From Candidatus Caccoplasma sp. (GTDB lineage: Bacteria > Bacteroidota > Bacteroidia > Bacteroidales > G3-4614): DNA of 64,000 bases. Below, piece by piece: positions 2,406-37,491 of the stretch (the stretch's first letter is position 1; each line of letters opens with the position of its first letter). The position numbers and the translations under genes were made by a program. The stretch lies in contig JAZNCN010000028.1 in the NCBI GenBank assembly GCA_045587545.1, positions 79,045 to 143,044 of the forward strand. Reading direction: 5' to 3'. The notes below the pieces were generated by a model. That model was not told where the DNA came from. It did no database searches and saw only the letters and a program-made list of their open reading frames with translations.

Positions 2406-4925
<2,520 letters not shown>

Positions 4926-4926
4926 T

Positions 4927-6048
4927 ATGATTATGTTTAGTGAAGAGATAGATAAATATAGTTGGGAATCAATAAGTTCAAAGATATATTCAAAAACCAA
5001 TTATGACGTTGAGCGAGCTTTATCAAAAGATAAGATTGATATTGAAGATTTTATGGCTTTAGTGTCGCCTGCCGCCGAAAAGTATATTGAACCTATGGCG
5101 CAACGGAGCCAACACTATACTCAAGAGCGATTTGGCAAAACTATTCAAATGTATATACCTCTATATTTAACAAACTCATGCACAAATCATTGTGTATATT
5201 GTGGGTTTCAGCATAACAACCCTATTAAGAGAGTAATTTTAAACATAGAGGAGATTGAAGAGGAGTGTAAAGCAATTAAGGCATTAGCCCCATTTGATAA
5301 TATACTGCTTGTTACCGGAGAAAACCCAAGAGATGCAGGAGTTGAGTACCTTAATGAAGCTATTAAAATAGCAAGAAAATACTTTACAAATATATCAATA
5401 GAAGTAATGCCTATGAAAAGCGAAGAGTATTCTCTTTTAGCAAAAAACGGCCTAAACGGAGTTGTATGTTTTCAAGAGACTTACAATCGTAACAGATATA
5501 AAATATATCACCCAAAAGGTATGAAATCGAACTTTGAGTGGCGTCTTAATGGCTTTGACAGAATGGGTGAAGCAAAACTTCATAAAATAGGGTTAGGAGT
5601 TCTTATAGGGCTGGAAGATTGGAGAACAGATGTAACAATGATGGCTATACACCTAACTTATTTGAAAAAACATTACTGGCAAACAAAATATAGTGTTAAT
5701 TTTCCGAGGATACGACCCTCTAAGGGTGGATTTCAGCCAAATGTTGTAATGAGTAACAAACAACTTGCACAACTTATTTTTGCATACAGAATTTTTGATA
5801 AAGATTTAGATATATCTATTTCAACTCGCGAAGAGGTTAAATTCAGAGACAACATTCTTAAGTTGGGAGCAACATCATTTAGTGCAGGCTCAAAAACAGA
5901 ACCCGGCGGATATAAAACCCACCCTCAAGCATTAGAGCAGTTTGAGGTGAGCGACCAACGCACTCCGTCAGAAGTTGAAATGAGTATAAGAGCAAGAGGT
6001 TATGAAGTAGTCTGGAAAGATTGGGACAGAGCATTTGATACAATATGA
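4927..6048 (+). CDS. thiH: 2-iminoacetate synthase ThiH (radical SAM tyrosine lyase)
   Basis: 373-aa ORF with the radical-SAM CxxxCxxC motif (CTNHCVYCGF). Sits in the thi operon. Confidence 0.9.
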   Translation: MIMFSEEIDKYSWESISSKIYSKTNYDVERALSKDKIDIEDFMALVSPAAEKYIEPMAQRSQHYTQERFGKTIQMYIPLYLTNSCTNHCVYCGFQHNNPIKRVILNIEEIEEECKAIKALAPFDNILLVTGENPRDAGVEYLNEAIKIARKYFTNISIEVMPMKSEEYSLLAKNGLNGVVCFQETYNRNRYKIYHPKGMKSNFEWRLNGFDRMGEAKLHKIGLGVLIGLEDWRTDVTMMAIHLTYLKKHYWQTKYSVNFPRIRPSKGGFQPNVVMSNKQLAQLIFAYRIFDKDLDISISTREEVKFRDNILKLGATSFSAGSKTEPGGYKTHPQALEQFEVSDQRTPSEVEMSIRARGYEVVWKDWDRAFDTI

Positions 6049-6737
6049 ACAGATATAGCCGACAAATAATGTTACCCGAAATTGGTAACGATGGGCAGAA
6101 GAAAATTTCAGAAGCATCAGTTTTAATTATTGGTGTAGGCGGATTAGGTTCTCCTATATCAATATATTTGGCTGCTGCAGGAGTAGGAAAAATTGGGTTA
6201 GTTGATAATGATACCGTATCAGAAAGTAATCTACAACGACAAATACTTTATAACAATTCGCATATAGGAAAGAAAAAAGTATATGTTGCAAAAGAACAAC
6301 TTAAAGCAATATCTCCTGATATAGATATTGAAATATACGATACCCTTTTTTCAACTGAAAACGGTTATGATATTGCAAAAGAGTACGATATAATTATTGA
6401 CGGTTGCGACAACAACGAAACACGCTATTTAATTGATAGCGTATCAAAAGAGTTGAATATCCCATACATTTATGGAGCAATATCAGAATTTAAAGGACAA
6501 GTATCAGTTTTTAACTATAATGGCGGTGTATCTTACTCCGATATTTATCCAAAATCAGAAAATATAAATAGCAATACAGACATTGGAGTTATTGGTGCAT
6601 TACCAGGTATTGTGGGAAGTATTCAAGCAATGGAAGCAATTAAAATTATTACTTCAACGGGTGAAGTATTACAAAATAAACTGCTCACTATTGATGCTCT
6701 CACAATGGATTTTACTATCTTTGAGGTAAACCTCTAA
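6045..6737 (+). CDS. thiF: ThiF/MoeB-family adenylyltransferase
   Basis: 230-aa ORF. RYSRQI...GVGGLGS nucleotide-binding loop of E1-like enzymes. ATGA overlap with thiH. Confidence 0.8.
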   Translation: MNRYSRQIMLPEIGNDGQKKISEASVLIIGVGGLGSPISIYLAAAGVGKIGLVDNDTVSESNLQRQILYNNSHIGKKKVYVAKEQLKAISPDIDIEIYDTLFSTENGYDIAKEYDIIIDGCDNNETRYLIDSVSKELNIPYIYGAISEFKGQVSVFNYNGGVSYSDIYPKSENINSNTDIGVIGALPGIVGSIQAMEAIKIITSTGEVLQNKLLTIDALTMDFTIFEVNL

Positions 6738-30382: not shown

Positions 30383-32035
30383 ATGTATAAAGGTTTTAAC
30401 AGTTACGTAGAAGAAAGCATAAGACAAAATTGGGAAATGTTGTCTTTAAGCGATTATAAAGGTGTTACATTTCAATATAAAGACATTGCTCGAAAAATTG
30501 CCAAGTTGCATATCCTTATGGAGAATGCCGGAATTGAAAAAGGAGATAAAATAGCATTATGTGGAAAAAATACATCGCACTGGGCAATTGCTTTTTTTGC
30601 AACACTATCATATGGAGCAATTGCTGTTCCCATTTTACATGAGTTTAAAGCTGACAATATTCACAATATTGTAAATCACAGCGAAGCCAAACTTCTATTC
30701 GTAGGAGATGTTGTTTGGGAGAATATCAATGACGAATTAATGACCGGATTGGAGAGTATTATTTTAATAAATGACTACTCTATTTTAAAAACCAATAACG
30801 AAAAACTTAAATATGCACGCGAACACTTGAATGAACTATTTGGTAAACGTTATCCTAATAGATTTACTGCAGAAGATTTAAATTTTCACAAAGATTCTCC
30901 AGAAGAGTTAGCTCTTATTAATTACACATCTGGTTCTACAGGATTCTCAAAAGGAGTTATGCTTCCTTATAGAGCATTAGTAACAAATCTTCAATATATA
31001 TTGGAAAATGTTACTCAACAAAAACATGGAGACAATATCGTTGCTATGTTGCCAATGGCTCATATGTATGGTTTAATGGTTGAGGTATGTAACTCATTCT
31101 GTCGAGGTTGCCATATACATTTCTTAACACGCATACCATCTCCGAAAGTTATTCTTGAGGCATTTGCCGAGTGCAAGCCTACATTTATAATAACAGTACC
31201 ATTGGTCATTGAAAAAATCATTAGAACTAAGGTATTCCCACTTCTTGACAAACCATTAATGAAAGTTCTTCTTAAAATACCATTCCTTGATGACCAACTT
31301 TTATCAAAAGTAAGAGCAAAATTAGAAGAGAGTTTCGGAGGAAATATTAAACAAATTATTGTTGGTGGAGCTGCTCTCAACAAAGAAGTTGAGCAATTTT
31401 TACAAAAAATAGGATTTCCTTTGACAGTAGGTTATGGAATGACAGAATGTGCTCCTCTTATATCATATTGTTGGTGGGAAGATACAAAGCCTCTATCTTG
31501 TGGTAAAATTTTACCGTACAACGAATGTAAGATTAACTCTATTGACCCTGAGAATATTCCCGGAGAGGTATGGATAAAAGGAGGAAATGTCATGCAAGGG
31601 TACTATAAGAACGAAGAAGCAACAGAAGCCGTTATGGACGGAGAATGGATGAATACAGGAGACCTTGGAATTATTGATAAAGATGGTTTCTTGTTCTTAA
31701 AAGGTCGTAGTAAAAATATGATTCTTGGTCCTTCCGGACAAAATATTTATCCCGAGGAGATTGAAGACAAAATAAACAATATGCATTTGGTTAACGAATC
31801 AATTGTCATTGAACAAGATGGTAAACTTGTAGCATTGATTTATCCCGATTTTGAAAGTGCGTCAAAATTAGGTTTTGACCAAAAAGCAGTAATTGATATT
31901 ATGGAAGAGAACCGAGTAATGCTTAATAAAACTCTTGCGGCATATTGCCAGATTACAAAAGTTAAAATATTTTACGAAGAATTTGAAAAAACAGCCAAAC
32001 GAAGCATTAAACGTTTCTTATATCAGAACGCATAA
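30383..32035 (+). CDS. AMP-dependent synthetase/ligase (long-chain acyl-CoA ligase-like), paralog 1
   Basis: 550-aa ORF. AMP-binding motif YTSGSTGFSKGV, plus GYGMTE and TGDLG. Confidence 0.8.
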   Translation: MYKGFNSYVEESIRQNWEMLSLSDYKGVTFQYKDIARKIAKLHILMENAGIEKGDKIALCGKNTSHWAIAFFATLSYGAIAVPILHEFKADNIHNIVNHSEAKLLFVGDVVWENINDELMTGLESIILINDYSILKTNNEKLKYAREHLNELFGKRYPNRFTAEDLNFHKDSPEELALINYTSGSTGFSKGVMLPYRALVTNLQYILENVTQQKHGDNIVAMLPMAHMYGLMVEVCNSFCRGCHIHFLTRIPSPKVILEAFAECKPTFIITVPLVIEKIIRTKVFPLLDKPLMKVLLKIPFLDDQLLSKVRAKLEESFGGNIKQIIVGGAALNKEVEQFLQKIGFPLTVGYGMTECAPLISYCWWEDTKPLSCGKILPYNECKINSIDPENIPGEVWIKGGNVMQGYYKNEEATEAVMDGEWMNTGDLGIIDKDGFLFLKGRSKNMILGPSGQNIYPEEIEDKINNMHLVNESIVIEQDGKLVALIYPDFESASKLGFDQKAVIDIMEENRVMLNKTLAAYCQITKVKIFYEEFEKTAKRSIKRFLYQNA

Positions 32036-32060
32036 ATAATTAAATATATATTGCACTATG

Positions 32061-32095
32061 ACAGAGTATGTTAAGAACACAGAGACATACTCTGT
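32061..32095 (+). terminator. rho-independent terminator (acagagtatg...catactctgt + T-rich)
   Basis: 10-bp perfect stem 26 nt after the paralog-1 stop, followed by taattttta. Confidence 0.65.
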
Positions 32096-32128
32096 TAATT
32101 TTTATGTGACTTTTTAAACATTTTTTAT

Positions 32129-32136
32129 TATATTTG
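32129..32136 (+). promoter_or_regulatory. Bacteroidota -7 promoter box TATATTTG
   Basis: TAnnTTTG match 83 nt upstream of the paralog-2 start. Confidence 0.35.
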
Positions 32137-32218
32137 CACTATATAGATTTTTACATTAACAACACAATCTATATTTATTATTGTTATATCATAAGTATAA
32201 TCCATAAATACAACAACT

Positions 32219-33865
32219 ATGGAAAAATGTTTTAATAGTTATTTTGAGGAGAGTATCAAACAAAATTGGGAACTCCCTGCGTTAAGTGATTTTAAAGGTG
32301 TTGCATATCATTATAAAGATATTGCTCGCAAGATTGAAAAAATTCATATATTATTTGAAGCCGCAGGAATTGAAAAAGGCGATAGAATAGCAATATGCGG
32401 ACGTAACTCTTCACATTGGGCTGTAGCAATGTTTGCGACATTAGCATACGGAGCAGTTGCTGTTCCTGTATTACATGAATTTAAAGCAGACAATGTTCAC
32501 AATATTGTAAATCATAGTGAAGCAAAACTTTTATGTGTTGGAGATATGGTATGGGAAAATCTAAACGACGAGATGATGCCCGACCTTACAGGAATTATTC
32601 TTTTAAATGATTTCTCTGTTCTCAAATCAAATTGTGAGAAATTAGTTGAAGCTCGCCACAGATTAAACGAATTATTTGGTAAAAAATATCCCGAAAGATT
32701 CTCTGCATCAGATATAAAATATCATAAAGATTCTCCCGAAGAGTTAGCAATAATAAACTACACATCAGGTTCTACAGGATTTTCAAAAGGAGTTATGCTA
32801 CCCTATCGAGCGTTAAATGCCAACTTAAAATTCTGTAACGAAAATCTTCCATGGTTAAAAACCGAAGATAATGCAGTATCAATGTTGCCTATGGCACATA
32901 TGTATGGTTTAATGATTGAGTTATTCAATCCATTTGCAAAAGGTTGTCACATTCACTTCTTAACACGCATACCTTCACCCAAAATAATTATGGATGCATT
33001 TGCAGAGTGCAAACCTCCTATTATTATTGCAGTACCATTAATTATTGAAAAAATCATCAGAAACAAAGTATTCCCTCTATTGGACAAACCCATTATGAAA
33101 TTCTTAATGATGATTCCTTTTGTTGACAATCAACTTCTCGCAAAAATAAAAGCAAAATTAGAAGAGAGTTTCGGTGGCAACCTAAAACAAGTTATTGTAG
33201 GAGGAGCGGCACTAAACAAAGAGGTAGAAGAGTTCTTGCGTAAAATTGACTTCCCCATCACAGTCGGATACGGAATGACAGAGTGTGCACCACTTGTATC
33301 GTATGCCCCATGGAATGAGACAAAACCGGGTGCATGTGGTAAGTTATGTAACTATATGGAAGCTCGCGTAAACTCAAAAGACCCAGAAAATATTGCAGGA
33401 GAGTTATGGTTGAAAGGACCTAATGTAATGCAAGGATATTTTAAAAACGAGGAGGCAACAGAAGCCGTTATGGACGGAGAATGGATGAACACAGGAGACC
33501 TCGCTTTAATTGATTCTGACGGATTTATATACATTAAAGGTCGCAGTAAAAATATGATTCTTGGTCCTTCCGGACAAAATATTTATCCCGAGGAGATTGA
33601 AGATCAACTTAATAATATGCCATACGTAAGTGAATCAATTGTTATTGAGCAAGATAGCAAACTTGTTTGGCTGGTATATCCCGATTTTGAGAATGGTGAA
33701 AAAGCAGGCATTTCACAAAAAAACATGGAAGCTCAAATGGAAGAGAATAGAGTTAATGCCAATAAGTTACTTCCCGCATATAGCCAAATTGCAAAAATTA
33801 AGGTTTACTACGAAGAGTTTGAAAAGACACCAAAAAGAAGTATTAAACGTTACTTATATCAATAA
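32219..33865 (+). CDS. AMP-dependent synthetase/ligase, paralog 2
   Basis: 548-aa ORF, collinear with paralog 1 over its full length with the same motifs. Confidence 0.8.
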   Translation: MEKCFNSYFEESIKQNWELPALSDFKGVAYHYKDIARKIEKIHILFEAAGIEKGDRIAICGRNSSHWAVAMFATLAYGAVAVPVLHEFKADNVHNIVNHSEAKLLCVGDMVWENLNDEMMPDLTGIILLNDFSVLKSNCEKLVEARHRLNELFGKKYPERFSASDIKYHKDSPEELAIINYTSGSTGFSKGVMLPYRALNANLKFCNENLPWLKTEDNAVSMLPMAHMYGLMIELFNPFAKGCHIHFLTRIPSPKIIMDAFAECKPPIIIAVPLIIEKIIRNKVFPLLDKPIMKFLMMIPFVDNQLLAKIKAKLEESFGGNLKQVIVGGAALNKEVEEFLRKIDFPITVGYGMTECAPLVSYAPWNETKPGACGKLCNYMEARVNSKDPENIAGELWLKGPNVMQGYFKNEEATEAVMDGEWMNTGDLALIDSDGFIYIKGRSKNMILGPSGQNIYPEEIEDQLNNMPYVSESIVIEQDSKLVWLVYPDFENGEKAGISQKNMEAQMEENRVNANKLLPAYSQIAKIKVYYEEFEKTPKRSIKRYLYQ

Positions 33866-34060: not shown

Positions 34061-34651
34061 TTATTTTTTAAGTATAATACAATACTCTTTATCCTCGTCA
34101 TAAAAACCCGTTACAGACAATCCTTTATTCTTATATTCATTAACCAAGACATTAATATCAGGTAGTTCAGCATCACTTATACGCTTATCACCCCCTAAGT
34201 GCATACAATTAATTTTACATCGTCCATATGTATGAGAAATAACCATAGTTCCCCCTTCAATTAAATTATTTCTATACAAATTAACCACCGATAATACTTT
34301 ATCTTTCAAATAAGGCAATACATTATAAAGTAATATAACATCATAAACATTGCTATCTTTATAATCTTCAATATTTGCTTTTATATATCTTATATGTGCA
34401 TCGTTAAAATTCTTAGCACGCGACATATTCAACATTCTTTGCGACAAGTCAAACTGCGTAATCTCCCCATTCTTATTTAACTTTCTTATATATGGCACAA
34501 GCACTCCTGTACCCGAACCTACATCAAGAACTTTTGCACCTTCTCTCATATCGGAAAGAGCAATAAATTTATTTAGTTGCTCCTTATTGTGCAATATTGC
34601 ATTATCCCATATCGCAGCCATTTCATCAAAATAATCAACCAAATGTTTCAT
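34061..34651 (-). CDS. class I SAM-dependent methyltransferase
   Basis: Motif I VLDVGSGTGVL. The preferred start is the ATG at 34651 (MKHLVDYF), which forms an ATGA overlap with the stop of the HypB-like gene. Confidence 0.75.
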   Translation of the reverse strand: MKHLVDYFDEMAAIWDNAILHNKEQLNKFIALSDMREGAKVLDVGSGTGVLVPYIRKLNKNGEITQFDLSQRMLNMSRAKNFNDAHIRYIKANIEDYKDSNVYDVILLYNVLPYLKDKVLSVVNLYRNNLIEGGTMVISHTYGRCKINCMHLGGDKRISDAELPDINVLVNEYKNKGLSVTGFYDEDKEYCIILKK

Positions 34652-35376
34652 CTTAATGACATATAAACTTTTTCCAATAAAAAAGAAGACCACTGTTCAA
34701 TTCCATCTCCATTTTGGGTAGAAAGCTTTAATATTTCCAAATTTGAATTTATGTTATGAATATTCTTTTCCAACACTTCTAATCTTGTGGGGATATATGG
34801 CAACAAATCAATTTTATTAATAATACACACATTTGCCGATTCAAACATATATGGATATTTAAGAGGTTTATTCTCTCCCTCGGTTACACTTGAAATAACC
34901 ACTCTCAACGACTCCCCTAAATCAAGCAATGAAGGGGATATGGAATTACCAACATTCTCAATGAAGAGAATTGTATTATCATGCAACTTCATACCCTTAA
35001 CAGCCTCATAAATTGTTTCAGCATCTAAATATTGATTATTCTCGCTATTTATTTGAAAATAATTTATTCCAAGTTCTTTTATACGTTTAGAATCGTCATA
35101 TGTTTGCAAATTACTTTCAATTAAAGCAAATGTGTACCTATTGCCTATATTACGTAGCGTCTCCTCAAATATTGAAGTTTTACCGGCACCCGGAGAACTT
35201 ACCAAATTAACCACATAAATATTCTTTGATTGAAAATACAATCGGTTTCGCTTTGCTTTTTCTATATTATTTAAAATTATTTCTCGTTCAATAGCTATTT
35301 TATCAAATGCTATATGCATTGCCCCAGTAGGGATATAATCGGGAGTATAATCTTCCCCTTTATTTTCGTTACTCAT
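34648..35376 (-). CDS. HypB-like G3E-family GTPase lacking the nickel ligands
   Basis: 242-aa ORF. Walker A SSPGAGKTS. Collinear with HypB (ENVGN, TEGENKPLKYP, NKIDLL). The positions of the G-domain Cys-His...Cys ligands read Gln-Tyr (NNQYLDA) and Ser (ENVGNSISP). There is no N-terminal CxxCGC or His stretch. Confidence 0.7.
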   Translation of the reverse strand: MSNENKGEDYTPDYIPTGAMHIAFDKIAIEREIILNNIEKAKRNRLYFQSKNIYVVNLVSSPGAGKTSIFEETLRNIGNRYTFALIESNLQTYDDSKRIKELGINYFQINSENNQYLDAETIYEAVKGMKLHDNTILFIENVGNSISPSLLDLGESLRVVISSVTEGENKPLKYPYMFESANVCIINKIDLLPYIPTRLEVLEKNIHNINSNLEILKLSTQNGDGIEQWSSFLLEKVYMSLR

Positions 35377-35390
35377 ATCTATTATTCAAA

Positions 35391-36236
35391 TTACTTATCT
35401 TCATACAATTTATTATGAGAGAAATTCATATTATCAATACTAAAAGGCGAAGGATAATACAAATTAATATTATACTCTCTCATATATATAATCAACAAAC
35501 TCATTAAAATTTTGTTTTGAAATATTGCTCCACAAAACAGAACATTATCAATTTGAATATCTCTACGAACTATATCAATAGCCAATTGTAACATATAAGC
35601 AAAAGTATTATGGAACTTTGCAGATATAACTGATTTATCAATACCCTTATCAACATCTGAAATCAAAAATGAAAATAGAAGTTTAATATCAAAAGGATTA
35701 TATCTGTTTACCGGATATCTTGTTTTTTCATCTTTTGATGCAATATGTTCAAGCATATAAATTGCCTCTCCGGGATATGTATTCACATCACACACACCTA
35801 TTAACGAAGCAACAGCATCGAAAAGGCTCTCCACTCCACGAGTACAACTATAATATTTATTATCAACAATACTATTTTCAACCGAATTTATATTCGCAGT
35901 ACCTATTCTATCAATAAATGATTGTGGGTAATAACGAGGCAAACCTTTTATTGCATTAATATAATAAACAACCATACGCCAAGGAAAGAGAGCTGTAAAA
36001 TTTACTTCCGACAAGGGTATTAACGGCAAATTCATCAACTTCACATGTTTGTTATTAGCACATAAAAGAACATCTCCACCACTCCCATAAACACCTTTTT
36101 CTTTATTATTACGATTAAAATCCAAAGACAATATTTTGCCTTTAATGTCATAACCTGTTATGACATCAGACGTGTTTGCATAATGATGTATTGTTATCAT
36201 AATCTCTATCTCCCGTATTTGTTTAACAAACCACAA
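35391..36236 (-). CDS. stand-alone HypF C-terminal (Kae1-like) domain fragment protein
   Basis: 281-aa ORF. GVYGSGGDVLL, SCTRGVESLFDAVASLIGV, GEAIYMLEHIA and FHNTFAYML...VLFCGAIFQNKIL align with the C-terminal half of HypF. No acylphosphatase, Zn-finger or YrdC regions are present, and only 230 bp of non-coding DNA lies upstream. Confidence 0.6.
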   Translation of the reverse strand: MWFVKQIREIEIMITIHHYANTSDVITGYDIKGKILSLDFNRNNKEKGVYGSGGDVLLCANNKHVKLMNLPLIPLSEVNFTALFPWRMVVYYINAIKGLPRYYPQSFIDRIGTANINSVENSIVDNKYYSCTRGVESLFDAVASLIGVCDVNTYPGEAIYMLEHIASKDEKTRYPVNRYNPFDIKLLFSFLISDVDKGIDKSVISAKFHNTFAYMLQLAIDIVRRDIQIDNVLFCGAIFQNKILMSLLIIYMREYNINLYYPSPFSIDNMNFSHNKLYEDK

Positions 36237-36466
36237 TAGATATTGTTCAACAACAAATAGTCAATTAGTAACAAGGATAGCTTCATATTTAAAGGATTAA
36301 TCATTTAAACACATTACAACACTAATTAACAAACTATTTTATAATAGATATTTGAGTAAATATTTATATATACATTAAGAATGTTCAATTTTTCCTATTA
36401 TCTTGGAAATATTATCACTGATTAGAAACTTATTTATATTTTCGCAGTAATTAAATCTCAAACCGC

Positions 36467-37357
36467 ATGGAAAACAATAATTCAAATTTACTTTTAGAAA
36501 AAATAAACAAGCTAAAACTTAACCTCGAAACATTTGGTATTGCAGTAGAAAAAGCAAATCATATATTCTTTTCTGCAACAAATATTGACGTTCCTGTAAA
36601 ACCCGGTGTAGTATCATTAGTTCTGCTAAATAAAGGAGACGGAACAGTATCAATCAATGAGACCGACCATAATATACATGACAACTCATTAATAATCATA
36701 TTACCTAATTATAACATAAAAAGAAGAATTAATCGCGGATATGCCCAAGAAGGATATATTGTATCAATATCAATTGATGCAATAACAAACTTATCCATAA
36801 AGACAGAATTTATGATACCTATGTTCATGATGTTTCAGAGTTTACCTATAATAAATCTTTCTGATGAAGAGAAAGGTTCATTATTTAAATATTTTGAACT
36901 TCTTTATAACGAGGAGAAGGGAGAAAATTCTGAAATTAAATTTTTGATATGTTCAAGTATAATACAATCCCTTACATATAAGATATCAGAAATATTACGA
37001 TCAAGATTTATAGGAGAATACGAAAAGCATAGCAGCAAAAGTAGTATTAGGATATTCAAAGAATTTATAAAACTTGCAACAACTGACTTCAGAGAACATA
37101 GAGATGTAGCATATTATGCAAACAAACTCTGCGTAACGCCCAAATATCTATCAACAATTGTAAAAGAGATAAGTAAAAATAAAGCATCTAAATGGATTGA
37201 AATTCTTGTTATCTCAGAAGCAAAAAATTTATTACACTATTCCGATATGACTATTCAAGAGATTGCATACAATTTAAACTTTCCTAACCCCTCATTTTTT
37301 GGAGCATATTTTAAGAAATACACAGGAATGACTCCCGGTGAGTACCGCAAGAGGTAG
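36467..37357 (+). CDS. AraC-family transcriptional regulator
   Basis: 296-aa ORF with a C-terminal double HTH (YYANKLCVTPKYLSTIV...IQEIAYNLNFPNPSFFGAYFKKYTGMTPGEYR). Divergent from the hypF-like gene. Confidence 0.85.
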   Translation: MENNNSNLLLEKINKLKLNLETFGIAVEKANHIFFSATNIDVPVKPGVVSLVLLNKGDGTVSINETDHNIHDNSLIIILPNYNIKRRINRGYAQEGYIVSISIDAITNLSIKTEFMIPMFMMFQSLPIINLSDEEKGSLFKYFELLYNEEKGENSEIKFLICSSIIQSLTYKISEILRSRFIGEYEKHSSKSSIRIFKEFIKLATTDFREHRDVAYYANKLCVTPKYLSTIVKEISKNKASKWIEILVISEAKNLLHYSDMTIQEIAYNLNFPNPSFFGAYFKKYTGMTPGEYRKR

Positions 37358-37412: not shown

Positions 37413-37419
37413 TTTTTAG

Positions 37420-37491
<72 letters not shown>

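Follow-up and report, generated by a model that had tools for sequence, protein, structure and literature searches.

Three closely packed minus-strand genes of Candidatus Caccoplasma sp., confirmed here, encode a HypF C-terminal half-domain (HypF-C), a HypB-like GTPase and a class I SAM methyltransferase (MT), and raise the question of what genes for hydrogenase maturation are doing at a locus that has no hydrogenase. A tblastn search of the window (the whole stretch of DNA analysed, 64 kb) found no further hycI, cytochrome b, large or small subunit or hypA/C/D/E gene in it, in agreement with the original prediction, which had left the choice between a decaying hyp remnant and a neo-functionalised trio. 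The features of the locus are the following.

30383-32035 and 32219-33865, plus strand: two tandem AMP-binding (acyl-CoA-ligase-like) genes, convergent with the MT gene (PF00501)
34061-34651, minus strand: class I SAM-dependent MT, 196 aa from ATG (Pfam, motif I, AF2 model, operon comparison)
34648-35376, minus strand: HypB-derived G3E GTPase without metal sites, 242 aa (TIGR00073, PDB alignments, NJ tree)
35391-36236, minus strand: stand-alone HypF-C, the second Kae1-like subdomain with eroded catalytic motifs, 281 aa from TTG or 269 aa from ATG at 36200 (PF22521, alignment with the HypF of locus L016)
36237-36466, no strand: AT-rich divergent intergenic region of 230 bp between the relic operon and araC, no ORF
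36467-37357, plus strand: regulator of the AraC family, 296 aa, transcribed away from the relic operon (HTH_18/HTH_AraC)
37419-37491, minus strand: tRNA-Met (CAT), marking the edge of the relic locus and serving as a synteny anchor (ARAGORN)

The coordinates and sequence statements of the original prediction all held on re-examination. HypF-C and the HypB-like gene are separated by 14 nt (35377-35390), and the stop codon of the HypB-like gene overlaps the MT start in an ATGA (34648-34651). The ORF listing contains an alternative GTG start for MT at 34693; all homologues begin at MKHL. At the base composition of the window, an open frame of 269 codons would arise by chance with P ~1e-11. PADLOC did not assign the locus to any defence system, and generic MT-domain similarity was all that it returned.

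HypF-C had been read as a truncated HypF, and correctly so: its sole Pfam domain is PF22521 (HypF_C_2, second Kae1-like subdomain, 1e-28), and the acylphosphatase, Zn-finger, YrdC and first Kae1-like subdomains are all absent. It scored 61.5 bits on the TIGR00143 hypF model (cut-off 466.1) and aligned with residues 473-732 of the full-length HypF of L016 at 37% identity over 263 aa (E 1e-63). The HHHAH motif is changed to HHYAN, with the second His replaced, and FNRNNKEKG and DNMNFSHNK stand where the DGxGxGxD loop, ND and GQ would be. Catalytic positions are kept in 0/5 members of the truncated family and structural positions in 4-5 of the 5; the structural motifs retained in HypF-C are PW, LFDAVxSLxG, YxGEA, RYP, FHNT and GxxFQN. 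A word-indexed homologue search gave 5 matches, and an exhaustive HMMER search was needed for the relatives of the same size at 46% and 37% identity. The AF2 model of HypF-C, built from a 5-sequence alignment with a pLDDT of 59 and used only to confirm the fold family, best matched HypF structures.

The HypB-like protein passed the TIGR00073 hypB model (207.8 bits, cut-off 121.2) and fell below the E. coli-type model NF007775 (218.9 bits, cut-off 385). The G-domain ligands of HypB are Cys166/His167 in E. coli and Cys106/His107 in H. pylori (PMC7055735). In the PDB alignments GEACHLEA/ENVGNLVCP of H. pylori HypB pairs with ENNQYLDA/ENVGNSISP of the window, and Q115-Y116...S147 lie opposite the C-H...C of PDB 4LPS, 2WSM and 2HF8 and of 19 canonical HypBs; at the metal-ligand positions CH has become QY, and C has become S. 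The ligand substitutions had therefore been read properly, and alignment also bore out the loss of the N-terminal CxxCGC/His-rich nickel sites. The protein begins with MSNENKGEDYTPDYIPTGAMH, its canonical relatives with MCxxCGC, and the lost N-terminal region is replaced by a new conserved motif, DYTxD(C/Y)IPTG. The GTPase motifs SSPGAGKT (P-loop), ENVGN and NKID are all present. Fixed differences between HypB-like and canonical HypB are confined to I34/L, Y116/H and S147/C, and the non-conservative ones to the ligands (H→Y, C→S). The sub-lineage of the window has Asn (ESN) at a position where Asp (EGD) is nearly invariant, a change that may make GTP hydrolysis weaker.

These substitutions are not peculiar to the window. 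Every HypB-like member has non-ligand residues (Gly/Gln, Tyr, Ser) in place of the G-domain ligands and of the N-terminal Cys/His site, and ligand state matches locus state in 14/14 loci: copies linked to a hydrogenase carry MCxxC(G/Q)C, GCH and VCP, and relic copies DYTxDxIPTG, xY and (I/L)SP. Phylogeny was examined by NJ trees only, in which the ligand-less HypB clade is monophyletic with 100% bootstrap and the clade from loci lacking HypF-C (98.5% bootstrap) has the window and L001 as its sister. A survey of Bacteroidales for the trio with its ligand substitutions had been proposed; the substitutions were present in all relic copies, but the trio was not always whole. HypB has lost exactly its metal ligands and kept the GTPase core, HypF-C has lost its catalytic and metal motifs with the structural core kept, and MT has kept the SAM motif.

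The origin of the locus was revealed by six intact loci from related Bacteroidales, e.g. Ca. Caccoplasma merdipullorum. The order hypE-D-C, hypF-hypA-hypB-MT is common to L016, L017, L019, L023, L025 and L026, and genes for a group-1-type [NiFe] hydrogenase (hycI, cytochrome b, large/small subunits) are present in all of them but L023, a short contig that ends in hypE and inside MT; the L026 contig is cut inside the large subunit. MT lies directly 3' of canonical HypB in these operons, with the ATGA overlap in L016 and L026, and is followed by an AMP-ligase, directly in L016, L017, L019 and L025 and after three intervening genes in L026. The two AMP-ligases of the window (30383-33865), 89-93% identical within the relic clade and 68-72% identical to the single AMP-ligase of L016, are the synteny anchors that tie the locus to the intact hydrogenase/hyp clusters. 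The trio is an in-situ remnant of the hypF-hypA-hypB-MT operon, which formerly lay between the hydrogenase/hypEDC block and the AMP-ligase. In a low-GC rumen/caecum clade (33% GC in the window vs 38-51% in the intact-operon loci), this locus has lost the hydrogenase, hypCDE, hypA and roughly 460 codons from the start of hypF, a deletion that put AraC and tRNA-Met beside the remainder. An origin from a mobile element, considered on account of the adjacent tRNA, was rejected because the AMP-ligase-side synteny is inherited from intact clusters. Most of the loci compared are MAGs or metagenome contigs.

The same synteny bears on whether the HypB-like protein could still be a metallochaperone, either serving a nickel enzyme elsewhere (hydrogenase, urease, CODH) through other ligands or standing at a spare paralogue locus. 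Its match to the HypB equivalog HMM and its intact GTPase core would suit such a role, which is nevertheless very improbable: no member has kept any of the three G-domain ligands or the N-terminal Cys/His site, the gene for HypA, which accepts the nickel, has been deleted, the locus is by synteny an orthologue of the hydrogenase locus and not a duplicate of it, and no nickel-related gene lies within the 64-kb window.

MT had been taken for an add-on to the hyp genes. It proved instead to be the constant element, already part of the intact hyp operon and the sole gene retained in every relic state. Its identity to the MTs located behind canonical hypB in L016, L017 and L025 is 47-53%, and its orthologues across intact operons align over the full length at 35-53% identity. 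It matched Pfam Methyltransf_11/25/12/31 above cut-offs and fell below every cut-off of the named NCBIfam families scanned (UbiE/MenG, UbiG, BioC, CpaM, DVU_1556), the best score being that for UbiG (42 bits vs cut-off 103). Motif I, VLDVGSGTG, is invariant. The AF2 model (pLDDT 95) had only generic class I small-molecule/peptide MT neighbours in Foldseek, without a clue to the substrate, and a scan of JGI metagenomes with the MT alignment returned only unrelated MTs. A distant homologue in Thermoanaerobacter kivui, located by an [FeFe]-hydrogenase-like MCP sensor and without hypB, was judged coincidental.

Comparison of the relic loci revealed three states. The first, in the window and its sisters, comprises HypF-C, HypB-like and MT; the second comprises HypB-like and MT without HypF-C (pair state); and the third comprises HypF-C and MT, the order in L028 being tRNA-Met, AraC, HypF-C, MT, with no HypB. 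Apart from the genome of the window, relic loci are present in GCA_017473425.1/JAFUKY01, JAFYRT01, JAZLBW01, JAFYPQ01 and JAFQBL01. Two more proteins, P0247 (269 aa) and P0248 (681 aa, a HypF that has no Zn-finger motifs), may represent additional intermediate states. No HypF remnants were detected by tblastn in the uncalled gaps of the pair-state loci, and the gap in L009 contains tRNA-Met. This tRNA was found by ARAGORN in the window, L001, L008, L009, L013 and L021, with a translated trace in L028.

The intergenic region 36237-36466 had been described as non-coding, and the ORF listing and tblastn likewise found neither an ORF nor a HypF remnant there. It is presumed to be the promoter/operator region of the relic operon and also to mark the junction of the ancestral hypF deletion. 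It is 80% identical to the corresponding region of L001, with ~73% identity at the synonymous sites of the adjacent gene. A scan for sigma-70-type promoters and terminators gave nothing above shuffled sequences, the model being one that does not cover Bacteroidota promoters. The divergent regulator matched PF12833 (HTH_18, C-terminal double helix-turn-helix) at 69 bits (cut-off 33.6), and none of the family models scanned assigned it to a named equivalog. Its dN/dS is 0.12. Orthologues with 48-57% identity occupy the same position in L001, L008, L021, L022 and L028, so that AraC is found with the trio, with HypF-C + MT and in some of the pair-state loci; in L009 and L013 an adh_short (short-chain dehydrogenase/reductase) gene takes its place. 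AraC control of the trio had been suggested. The support for a link between AraC and the operon is one of synteny, through the conserved position in several relic states.

These states also bear on whether the genes form an obligate new three-component GTPase/ASKHA/methyltransferase machine under AraC control. Close packing and co-orientation, purifying selection on all three genes (below) and the conservation of the trio with AraC in three sister lineages (window, L001-L007, L027) would be expected of one. Two-gene versions without HypF-C or without HypB-like are, however, selectively maintained in relatives, AraC is swapped for adh_short in some loci, and the arrangement was inherited from the hyp operon and not newly assembled. 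We consider such a machine unlikely; of the proposed neo-functionalised trio, selection on all three genes stands and the obligate three-part system does not.

The original prediction had called for dN/dS to separate selection from decay, and the test, when run, gave purifying selection on all three genes. Between the window and L001, dN/dS was 0.17 for HypF-C, 0.06 for HypB-like and 0.19 for MT. Across the informative pairs of the relic clade it was 0.06-0.2 for HypB-like and mostly 0.08-0.37 for MT, dS being saturated for deep pairs, and HypF-C gave 0.12-0.17 in three lineages with P(neutral) <= 1e-11. The surviving trio remains under purifying selection; its genes are still held intact and therefore probably do something besides building hydrogenase.

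Passive decay, by which the three genes would be non-functional hyp leftovers that have not yet acquired disabling mutations, is already largely refuted by these values (dN/dS 0.06-0.19, P(neutral) <= 1e-7 to 1e-16) and has hardly any probability left. In its favour, the genes clearly come from a hyp operon, their ligand and catalytic residues have disappeared, every hyp-derived gene is lost in some lineage, and at matched AMP-ligase divergence the rate of evolution of HypB-like and MT is 2-3 times that of the canonical orthologues, which fits partial relaxation as well as new function. Yet at least 12 ligand-less HypB sequences (identity down to 54%) and 5 HypF-C sequences (down to 37%) retain an intact ORF despite an AT-rich genome, and the substitutions cluster at ligands with GTPase and structural motifs invariant. 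Of the decaying remnant originally envisaged, the hyp origin is borne out by collinearity with the intact clusters, and the decay is not, the genes being under selection and intact in many lineages.

It might also be that MT alone is functional and that the upstream ORFs persist as promoter or leader and for translation coupling and avoidance of polarity. MT is the only universally retained gene, it overlaps the preceding HypB-like gene by ATGA in the window as hypB does in intact operons, and either upstream gene has been deleted in nature. Selection for an open frame alone would not, however, produce the amino-acid constraint seen in HypB-like (dN/dS 0.06), and it leaves unexplained the preservation of the P-loop, ENVGN and NKxD and the new conserved N-terminal motif. 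Furthermore, MT adjoins a different upstream gene in L028 and L008, and the architecture is therefore flexible. This explanation is accordingly doubtful.

The reading that we favour, at a probability of roughly 60%, is that of a hyp-operon remnant under selection, now centred on MT, with two optional accessory proteins derived from hyp genes. MT, as the sole gene in all relic states, would be the core of the operon, with a small molecule as its probable substrate. HypB, now free of metal, would act as a GTP-dependent dimerising switch and the HypF half-domain as a non-catalytic, pseudoenzyme-like partner, both being optional accessories to MT or to a client in common; some lineages do without one or the other hyp-derived gene, and neither is therefore essential to MT. 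Expression would proceed from the AraC-side intergenic region. A nickel-independent role probably predates the loss of the hydrogenase, because the ATGA coupling of MT to hypB is already present in two intact operons.

A bolder form of this MT-centred reading, put forward tentatively and with a probability well under one half, holds that the HypB of this lineage has a second, nickel-independent and GTP-dependent job with the co-translated MT; after loss of the hydrogenase that job alone would have been selected, the metal sites stripped and the HypF half-domain kept as a pseudoenzyme partner. If so, the hyp operon would include a member overlooked until now, MT, which could be a novel factor linked to hydrogenase, and nature would have provided, in the relic clade, a separation-of-function mutant of HypB.

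A literature search on MTs in hyp operons, ligand-less HypB, stand-alone HypF C-domains and Caccoplasma hydrogenases returned nothing. The graded natural series of intact operon, trio and two different pairs illustrates the fate of maturation genes after loss of their client enzyme, and points to an uncharacterised MT that is a stable hyp-operon member in one Bacteroidales lineage and to a possible nickel-independent role of HypB. For annotation, the HypB-like proteins pass the HypB equivalog model and carry the HypB name in public MAGs, and nickel-hydrogenase capacity could be wrongly inferred from them in metabolic reconstructions of rumen/gut Bacteroidales. The public entry P0006 (HypB-like) is named 'hydrogenase nickel incorporation protein HypB', which is misleading because the ligands, hypA and the hydrogenase are missing at the locus.

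Among known systems, HypB (TIGR00073; PDB 4LPS, 2WSM, 2HF8) is the closest to the GTPase, which descends from hypB at the same locus, has a collinear G-domain with 46-51% identity to Bacteroidota HypB and keeps the P-loop, ENVGN and NKxD. It differs in having Gln/Gly-Tyr...Ser where HypB has Cys-His...Cys, and a new conserved N-terminal motif in place of the CXXCGC/His-rich site; hypA and [NiFe] hydrogenase partners were found neither in the 64-kb window nor at the syntenic relic loci. HypF-C is homologous to the last ~260 residues of HypF (TIGR00143; PDB 3VTH, 3TSP, 4G9I) but lacks the catalytic motifs and the other domains, and HypE, the client of HypF, is missing from the window. With the intact hypF-hypA-hypB-MT operon the locus shares gene order, strand, the ATGA coupling of hypB and MT (L016, L026), MT itself and the AMP-ligase neighbour, whereas the hydrogenase, hypEDC, hypA and two-thirds of hypF are absent and AraC and tRNA-Met abut. 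Two further systems offer functional analogies, having no close sequence relationship to the window proteins. MeaB/ArgK, a G3E GTPase with no Cys/His metal site, acts as a gate for the loading of a cofactor, and TsaB/YeaZ is an inactive ASKHA paralogue that serves as a scaffold for TsaD; by analogy, they may be regarded as precedents for a G3E GTPase free of metal sites and for a dead binding partner of the Kae1 family.

The three genes of the hyp-like module and the tRNA gene at the edge of their locus were located on the minus strand as follows.

34061-34651, minus strand: SAM methyltransferase (MT), 196 aa from ATG
34648-35376, minus strand: GTPase lacking the metal ligands (HypB-like), 242 aa
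35391-36236, minus strand: HypF C-terminal fragment (HypF-C), 281 aa from TTG, or 269 aa from ATG at 36200
37419-37491, minus strand: tRNA-Met (CAT), between araC and a gene for a Cys/Met-metabolism PLP enzyme

All three ORFs of the original prediction were present and spaced as described, with a gap of 14 nt and an ATGA overlap. The 230 bp upstream of HypF-C, claimed to be non-coding, contained neither an ORF nor a HypF remnant and, as had also been stated, no further hyp or hydrogenase genes were detectable within the 64-kb window. In family scans, HypF_C_2 was the sole Pfam match of HypF-C (1e-28), MT was a class I SAM methyltransferase under the cut-off of each named family, and the gene divergent from the trio was of the AraC type. 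On the equivalog model for HypF, HypF-C reached 61 bits (cut-off 466), and HypB-like scored 208 bits on TIGR00073 hypB, above the cut-off of 121. The same MT start ATG was found in all homologues.

Comparison loci (L001-L028), mostly MAG or metagenome contigs, were used to trace the origin of the trio. The hydrogenase-bearing locus L016 carries hycI, cytochrome b, the [NiFe] large subunit, the small subunit, hypE, hypD and hypC, followed by hypF-hypA-hypB-MT and then by a gene for an AMP-binding, acyl-CoA-ligase-like protein (AMP-ligase). The HypB of L016 is canonical (MCENCGC, GCH, VCP), and its hypB stop is overlapped by the MT start, as in the window. HypF-C of the window matched residues 473-732 of L016 HypF (37% identity, E 1e-63), while identity was 47% for MT and 68-72% for the AMP-ligases. 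When genomes were scanned with the MT alignment and further look-ups were made, the intact operon order was found in five loci beyond L016, including L017 from Ca. Caccoplasma merdipullorum, L023, on a short contig that stops short of the hydrogenase genes at one end and within MT at the other, and L026, where three genes lie between the AMP-ligase and an MT of just 35% identity; L015 has a different hyp order and no MT. The sister MAG GCA_017473425.1 (L001) matches the window in arrangement, with AraC, HypF-C, HypB-like, MT and two AMP-ligases. With tRNA-Met and the AMP-ligases as synteny anchors, four locus states were distinguished.

State A, intact hydrogenase/hyp cluster with MT: L016, L017, L019, L023, L025, L026
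State B, AraC, HypF-C, HypB-like and MT: window, L001-L007, L027
State C, HypB-like and MT only: L008-L014, L018, L020-L022; the upstream gene is AraC in L008, L021 and L022, and adh_short in L009 and L013
State D, tRNA-Met, AraC, HypF-C and MT, without HypB and with a 64-bp gap: L028

The comparison shows that the trio arose in situ from a hypF-hypA-hypB-MT operon, that the hydrogenase-specific parts were lost at this locus, and that MT, the sole gene present in all states, is the constant element. The trio had also been proposed to act as a three-component system; as an obligate unit this is contradicted by state C, which is without HypF-C, and by state D, which is without HypB.

Several features surround the locus. 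Tandem AMP-ligase paralogues, 72% identical to each other, lie at 30383-32035 and 32219-33865 of the window. A single copy of about 550 aa directly follows MT in the intact loci L016, L017, L019 and L025, whereas relic-clade loci have two in tandem wherever the sequence extends far enough to show them (relic loci being those without hydrogenase genes), so the duplication may coincide with the relic clade. The tRNA-Met at the relic-locus edge is conserved in L001, L008, L009, L013 and L021, and marks a variable junction holding an AraC or adh_short gene. In L004 (1-2137), the HypF-C allele is identical to that of L001; the upstream sequence, from 146 bp before HypF-C (window 36346), is unrelated to L001 and the window and has, in place of AraC, an ORF of 430 aa and part of a glycosyltransferase gene; the cause is either rearrangement of the intergenic region at strain level or chimerism of the assembled contig. 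A 1245-aa ORF separates MT from the AMP-ligase in the state C loci L018 (about 2500-6470) and L020 (2994-6731); a GH85/Por_Secre_tail protein of comparable size is encoded elsewhere in L001. GC content is 28-35% in relic loci (window, L001, L008-L013, L018, L020-L022, L028) and 38-51% in the six intact loci, and thus hydrogenase loss coincides with a low-GC shift in this gut/rumen lineage.

The metal ligands of HypB are Cys166/His167 in E. coli and Cys106/His107 in H. pylori, in addition to an N-terminal CXXCGC site (PMC7055735). Alignment to solved HypB structures bore out the predicted ligand replacement, with Q-Y and S of HypB-like occupying the Cys-His and Cys positions. HypB-like belongs to a small subfamily (54-94% identity) in which every member has x-Y and S at these positions and lacks the N-terminal Cys/His region. 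Comparison of 12 ligand-less with 19 canonical HypBs gave three fixed differences (I34/L, Y116/H, S147/C), and position 115 (G/Q versus C) and the N-terminal Cys were near-fixed. The ligand-less clade retains 85 invariant positions of 242, including the P-loop, ENVGN and NKxD, and a new motif, DYTxD(C/Y)IPTG, is common to the N-termini of its members; a near-invariant Asp (EGD) is Asn in the sub-lineage of the window. Ligand state and locus state agreed in 14/14 loci. In trees built by neighbour joining only, the ligand-less clade had 100% bootstrap support and joined Caccoplasma-type canonical HypBs (86%), with the state C proteins monophyletic (98.5%) and window plus L001 as their sister. 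Since the ligands are lost and hypA is deleted, it is unlikely that HypB-like acts as chaperone to some nickel enzyme whose gene lies elsewhere.

Exact or near relatives of HypF-C were very rare (3 clusters at 88-100% identity in a word-indexed search of 5.8 billion proteins), and an exhaustive HMMER search added two stand-alone relatives that match it in size, P0246 (46% identity) and P0247 (37%). The second His of HHxAH, the DGxGxGxD loop, Trp, ND and GQ were kept in 0/5 truncated HypF proteins, and the structural motifs PW, FDA, EA, YP, FHNT and G..FQN in 4-5/5, a sequence pattern that points to a pseudoenzyme rather than a pseudogene. The AF2 model of HypF-C was of low confidence, with HypF structures still its best match. 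The HMMER search also returned P0248 (681 aa), a near-full-length HypF homologue with a C-terminus 37% identical to HypF-C of the window; it is without recognisable CxxC zinc-finger motifs, its DGxGxG loop is degenerate in part, NN stands in place of ND, and it may represent an intermediate stage in HypF erosion.

Metal and catalytic residues have thus been specifically removed, and the surviving genes are still under purifying selection. Between the window and L001, dN/dS (NG86) was 0.17 for HypF-C, 0.063 for HypB-like, 0.19 for MT, 0.12 for AraC and 0.01-0.03 for housekeeping neighbours. With L027 as third lineage, HypF-C gave 0.12-0.17 (binomial P for neutrality 1e-11 to 1e-16). Informative relic-clade pairs gave 0.06-0.2 for HypB-like and 0.08-0.37 for MT, and the canonical pair L016-L017 gave 0.07 for HypB and 0.10 for MT, ratios for deep pairs being rough because dS is saturated and uneven between adjacent genes. 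At equal AMP-ligase divergence (dN 0.041), dN was 0.318 for HypB-like against 0.140 for canonical HypB, and 0.445 for relic MT against 0.140 for canonical-side MT; both genes are accelerated 2-3-fold, yet far under neutrality. The reading of the trio as a decaying hyp remnant therefore holds for its origin and fails for decay: neutral decay is contradicted by purifying selection and by the change of metal and catalytic residues while GTPase and structural motifs were kept. That HypB-like and HypF-C persist only for the expression of MT is improbable given the constraint at the amino-acid level.

Synonymous divergence differed 2-3-fold between adjacent genes of the same genome pair among L009, L018 and L020. 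For L009-L018, dS was 1.09 for HypB-like and 1.63 for MT against 0.50 for AMP-ligase, and for L018-L020 the ranking of HypB-like was reversed (0.04 against 0.31), which suggests that recombination or exchange of alleles has taken place inside the locus.

The MT model was confident (pLDDT 95), and its structural neighbours were generic small-molecule and peptide methyltransferases. A distant MT homologue (31% identity) at 8001-8594 of L024, from Thermoanaerobacter kivui, directly follows a gene combining [FeFe]-hydrogenase-like and methyl-accepting chemotaxis (MCP) domains; no hypB was found near it, and the proximity is probably coincidental. No literature was found on MT in hyp operons, ligand-less HypB or stand-alone HypF C-domains.

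The evolutionary case is well documented. As to function, sequence and locus comparison suggest that the operon now serves MT, probably acting on a small molecule, with the metal-free HypB-like protein as a putative GTP-dependent dimerising switch and the HypF half-domain as a candidate non-catalytic partner, each of which would be optional. Expression would probably proceed from the AraC-side intergenic region, which is 80% identical between the window and L001 (synonymous sites, about 73%). Because the coupling of MT to hypB is already present in intact operons, HypB and MT may have had a nickel-independent relationship before the hydrogenase was lost. HypB-like and HypF-C descend from HypB and HypF, respectively, yet each fails the defining functional features of its family, and the public annotation of HypB-like as HypB is therefore misleading.
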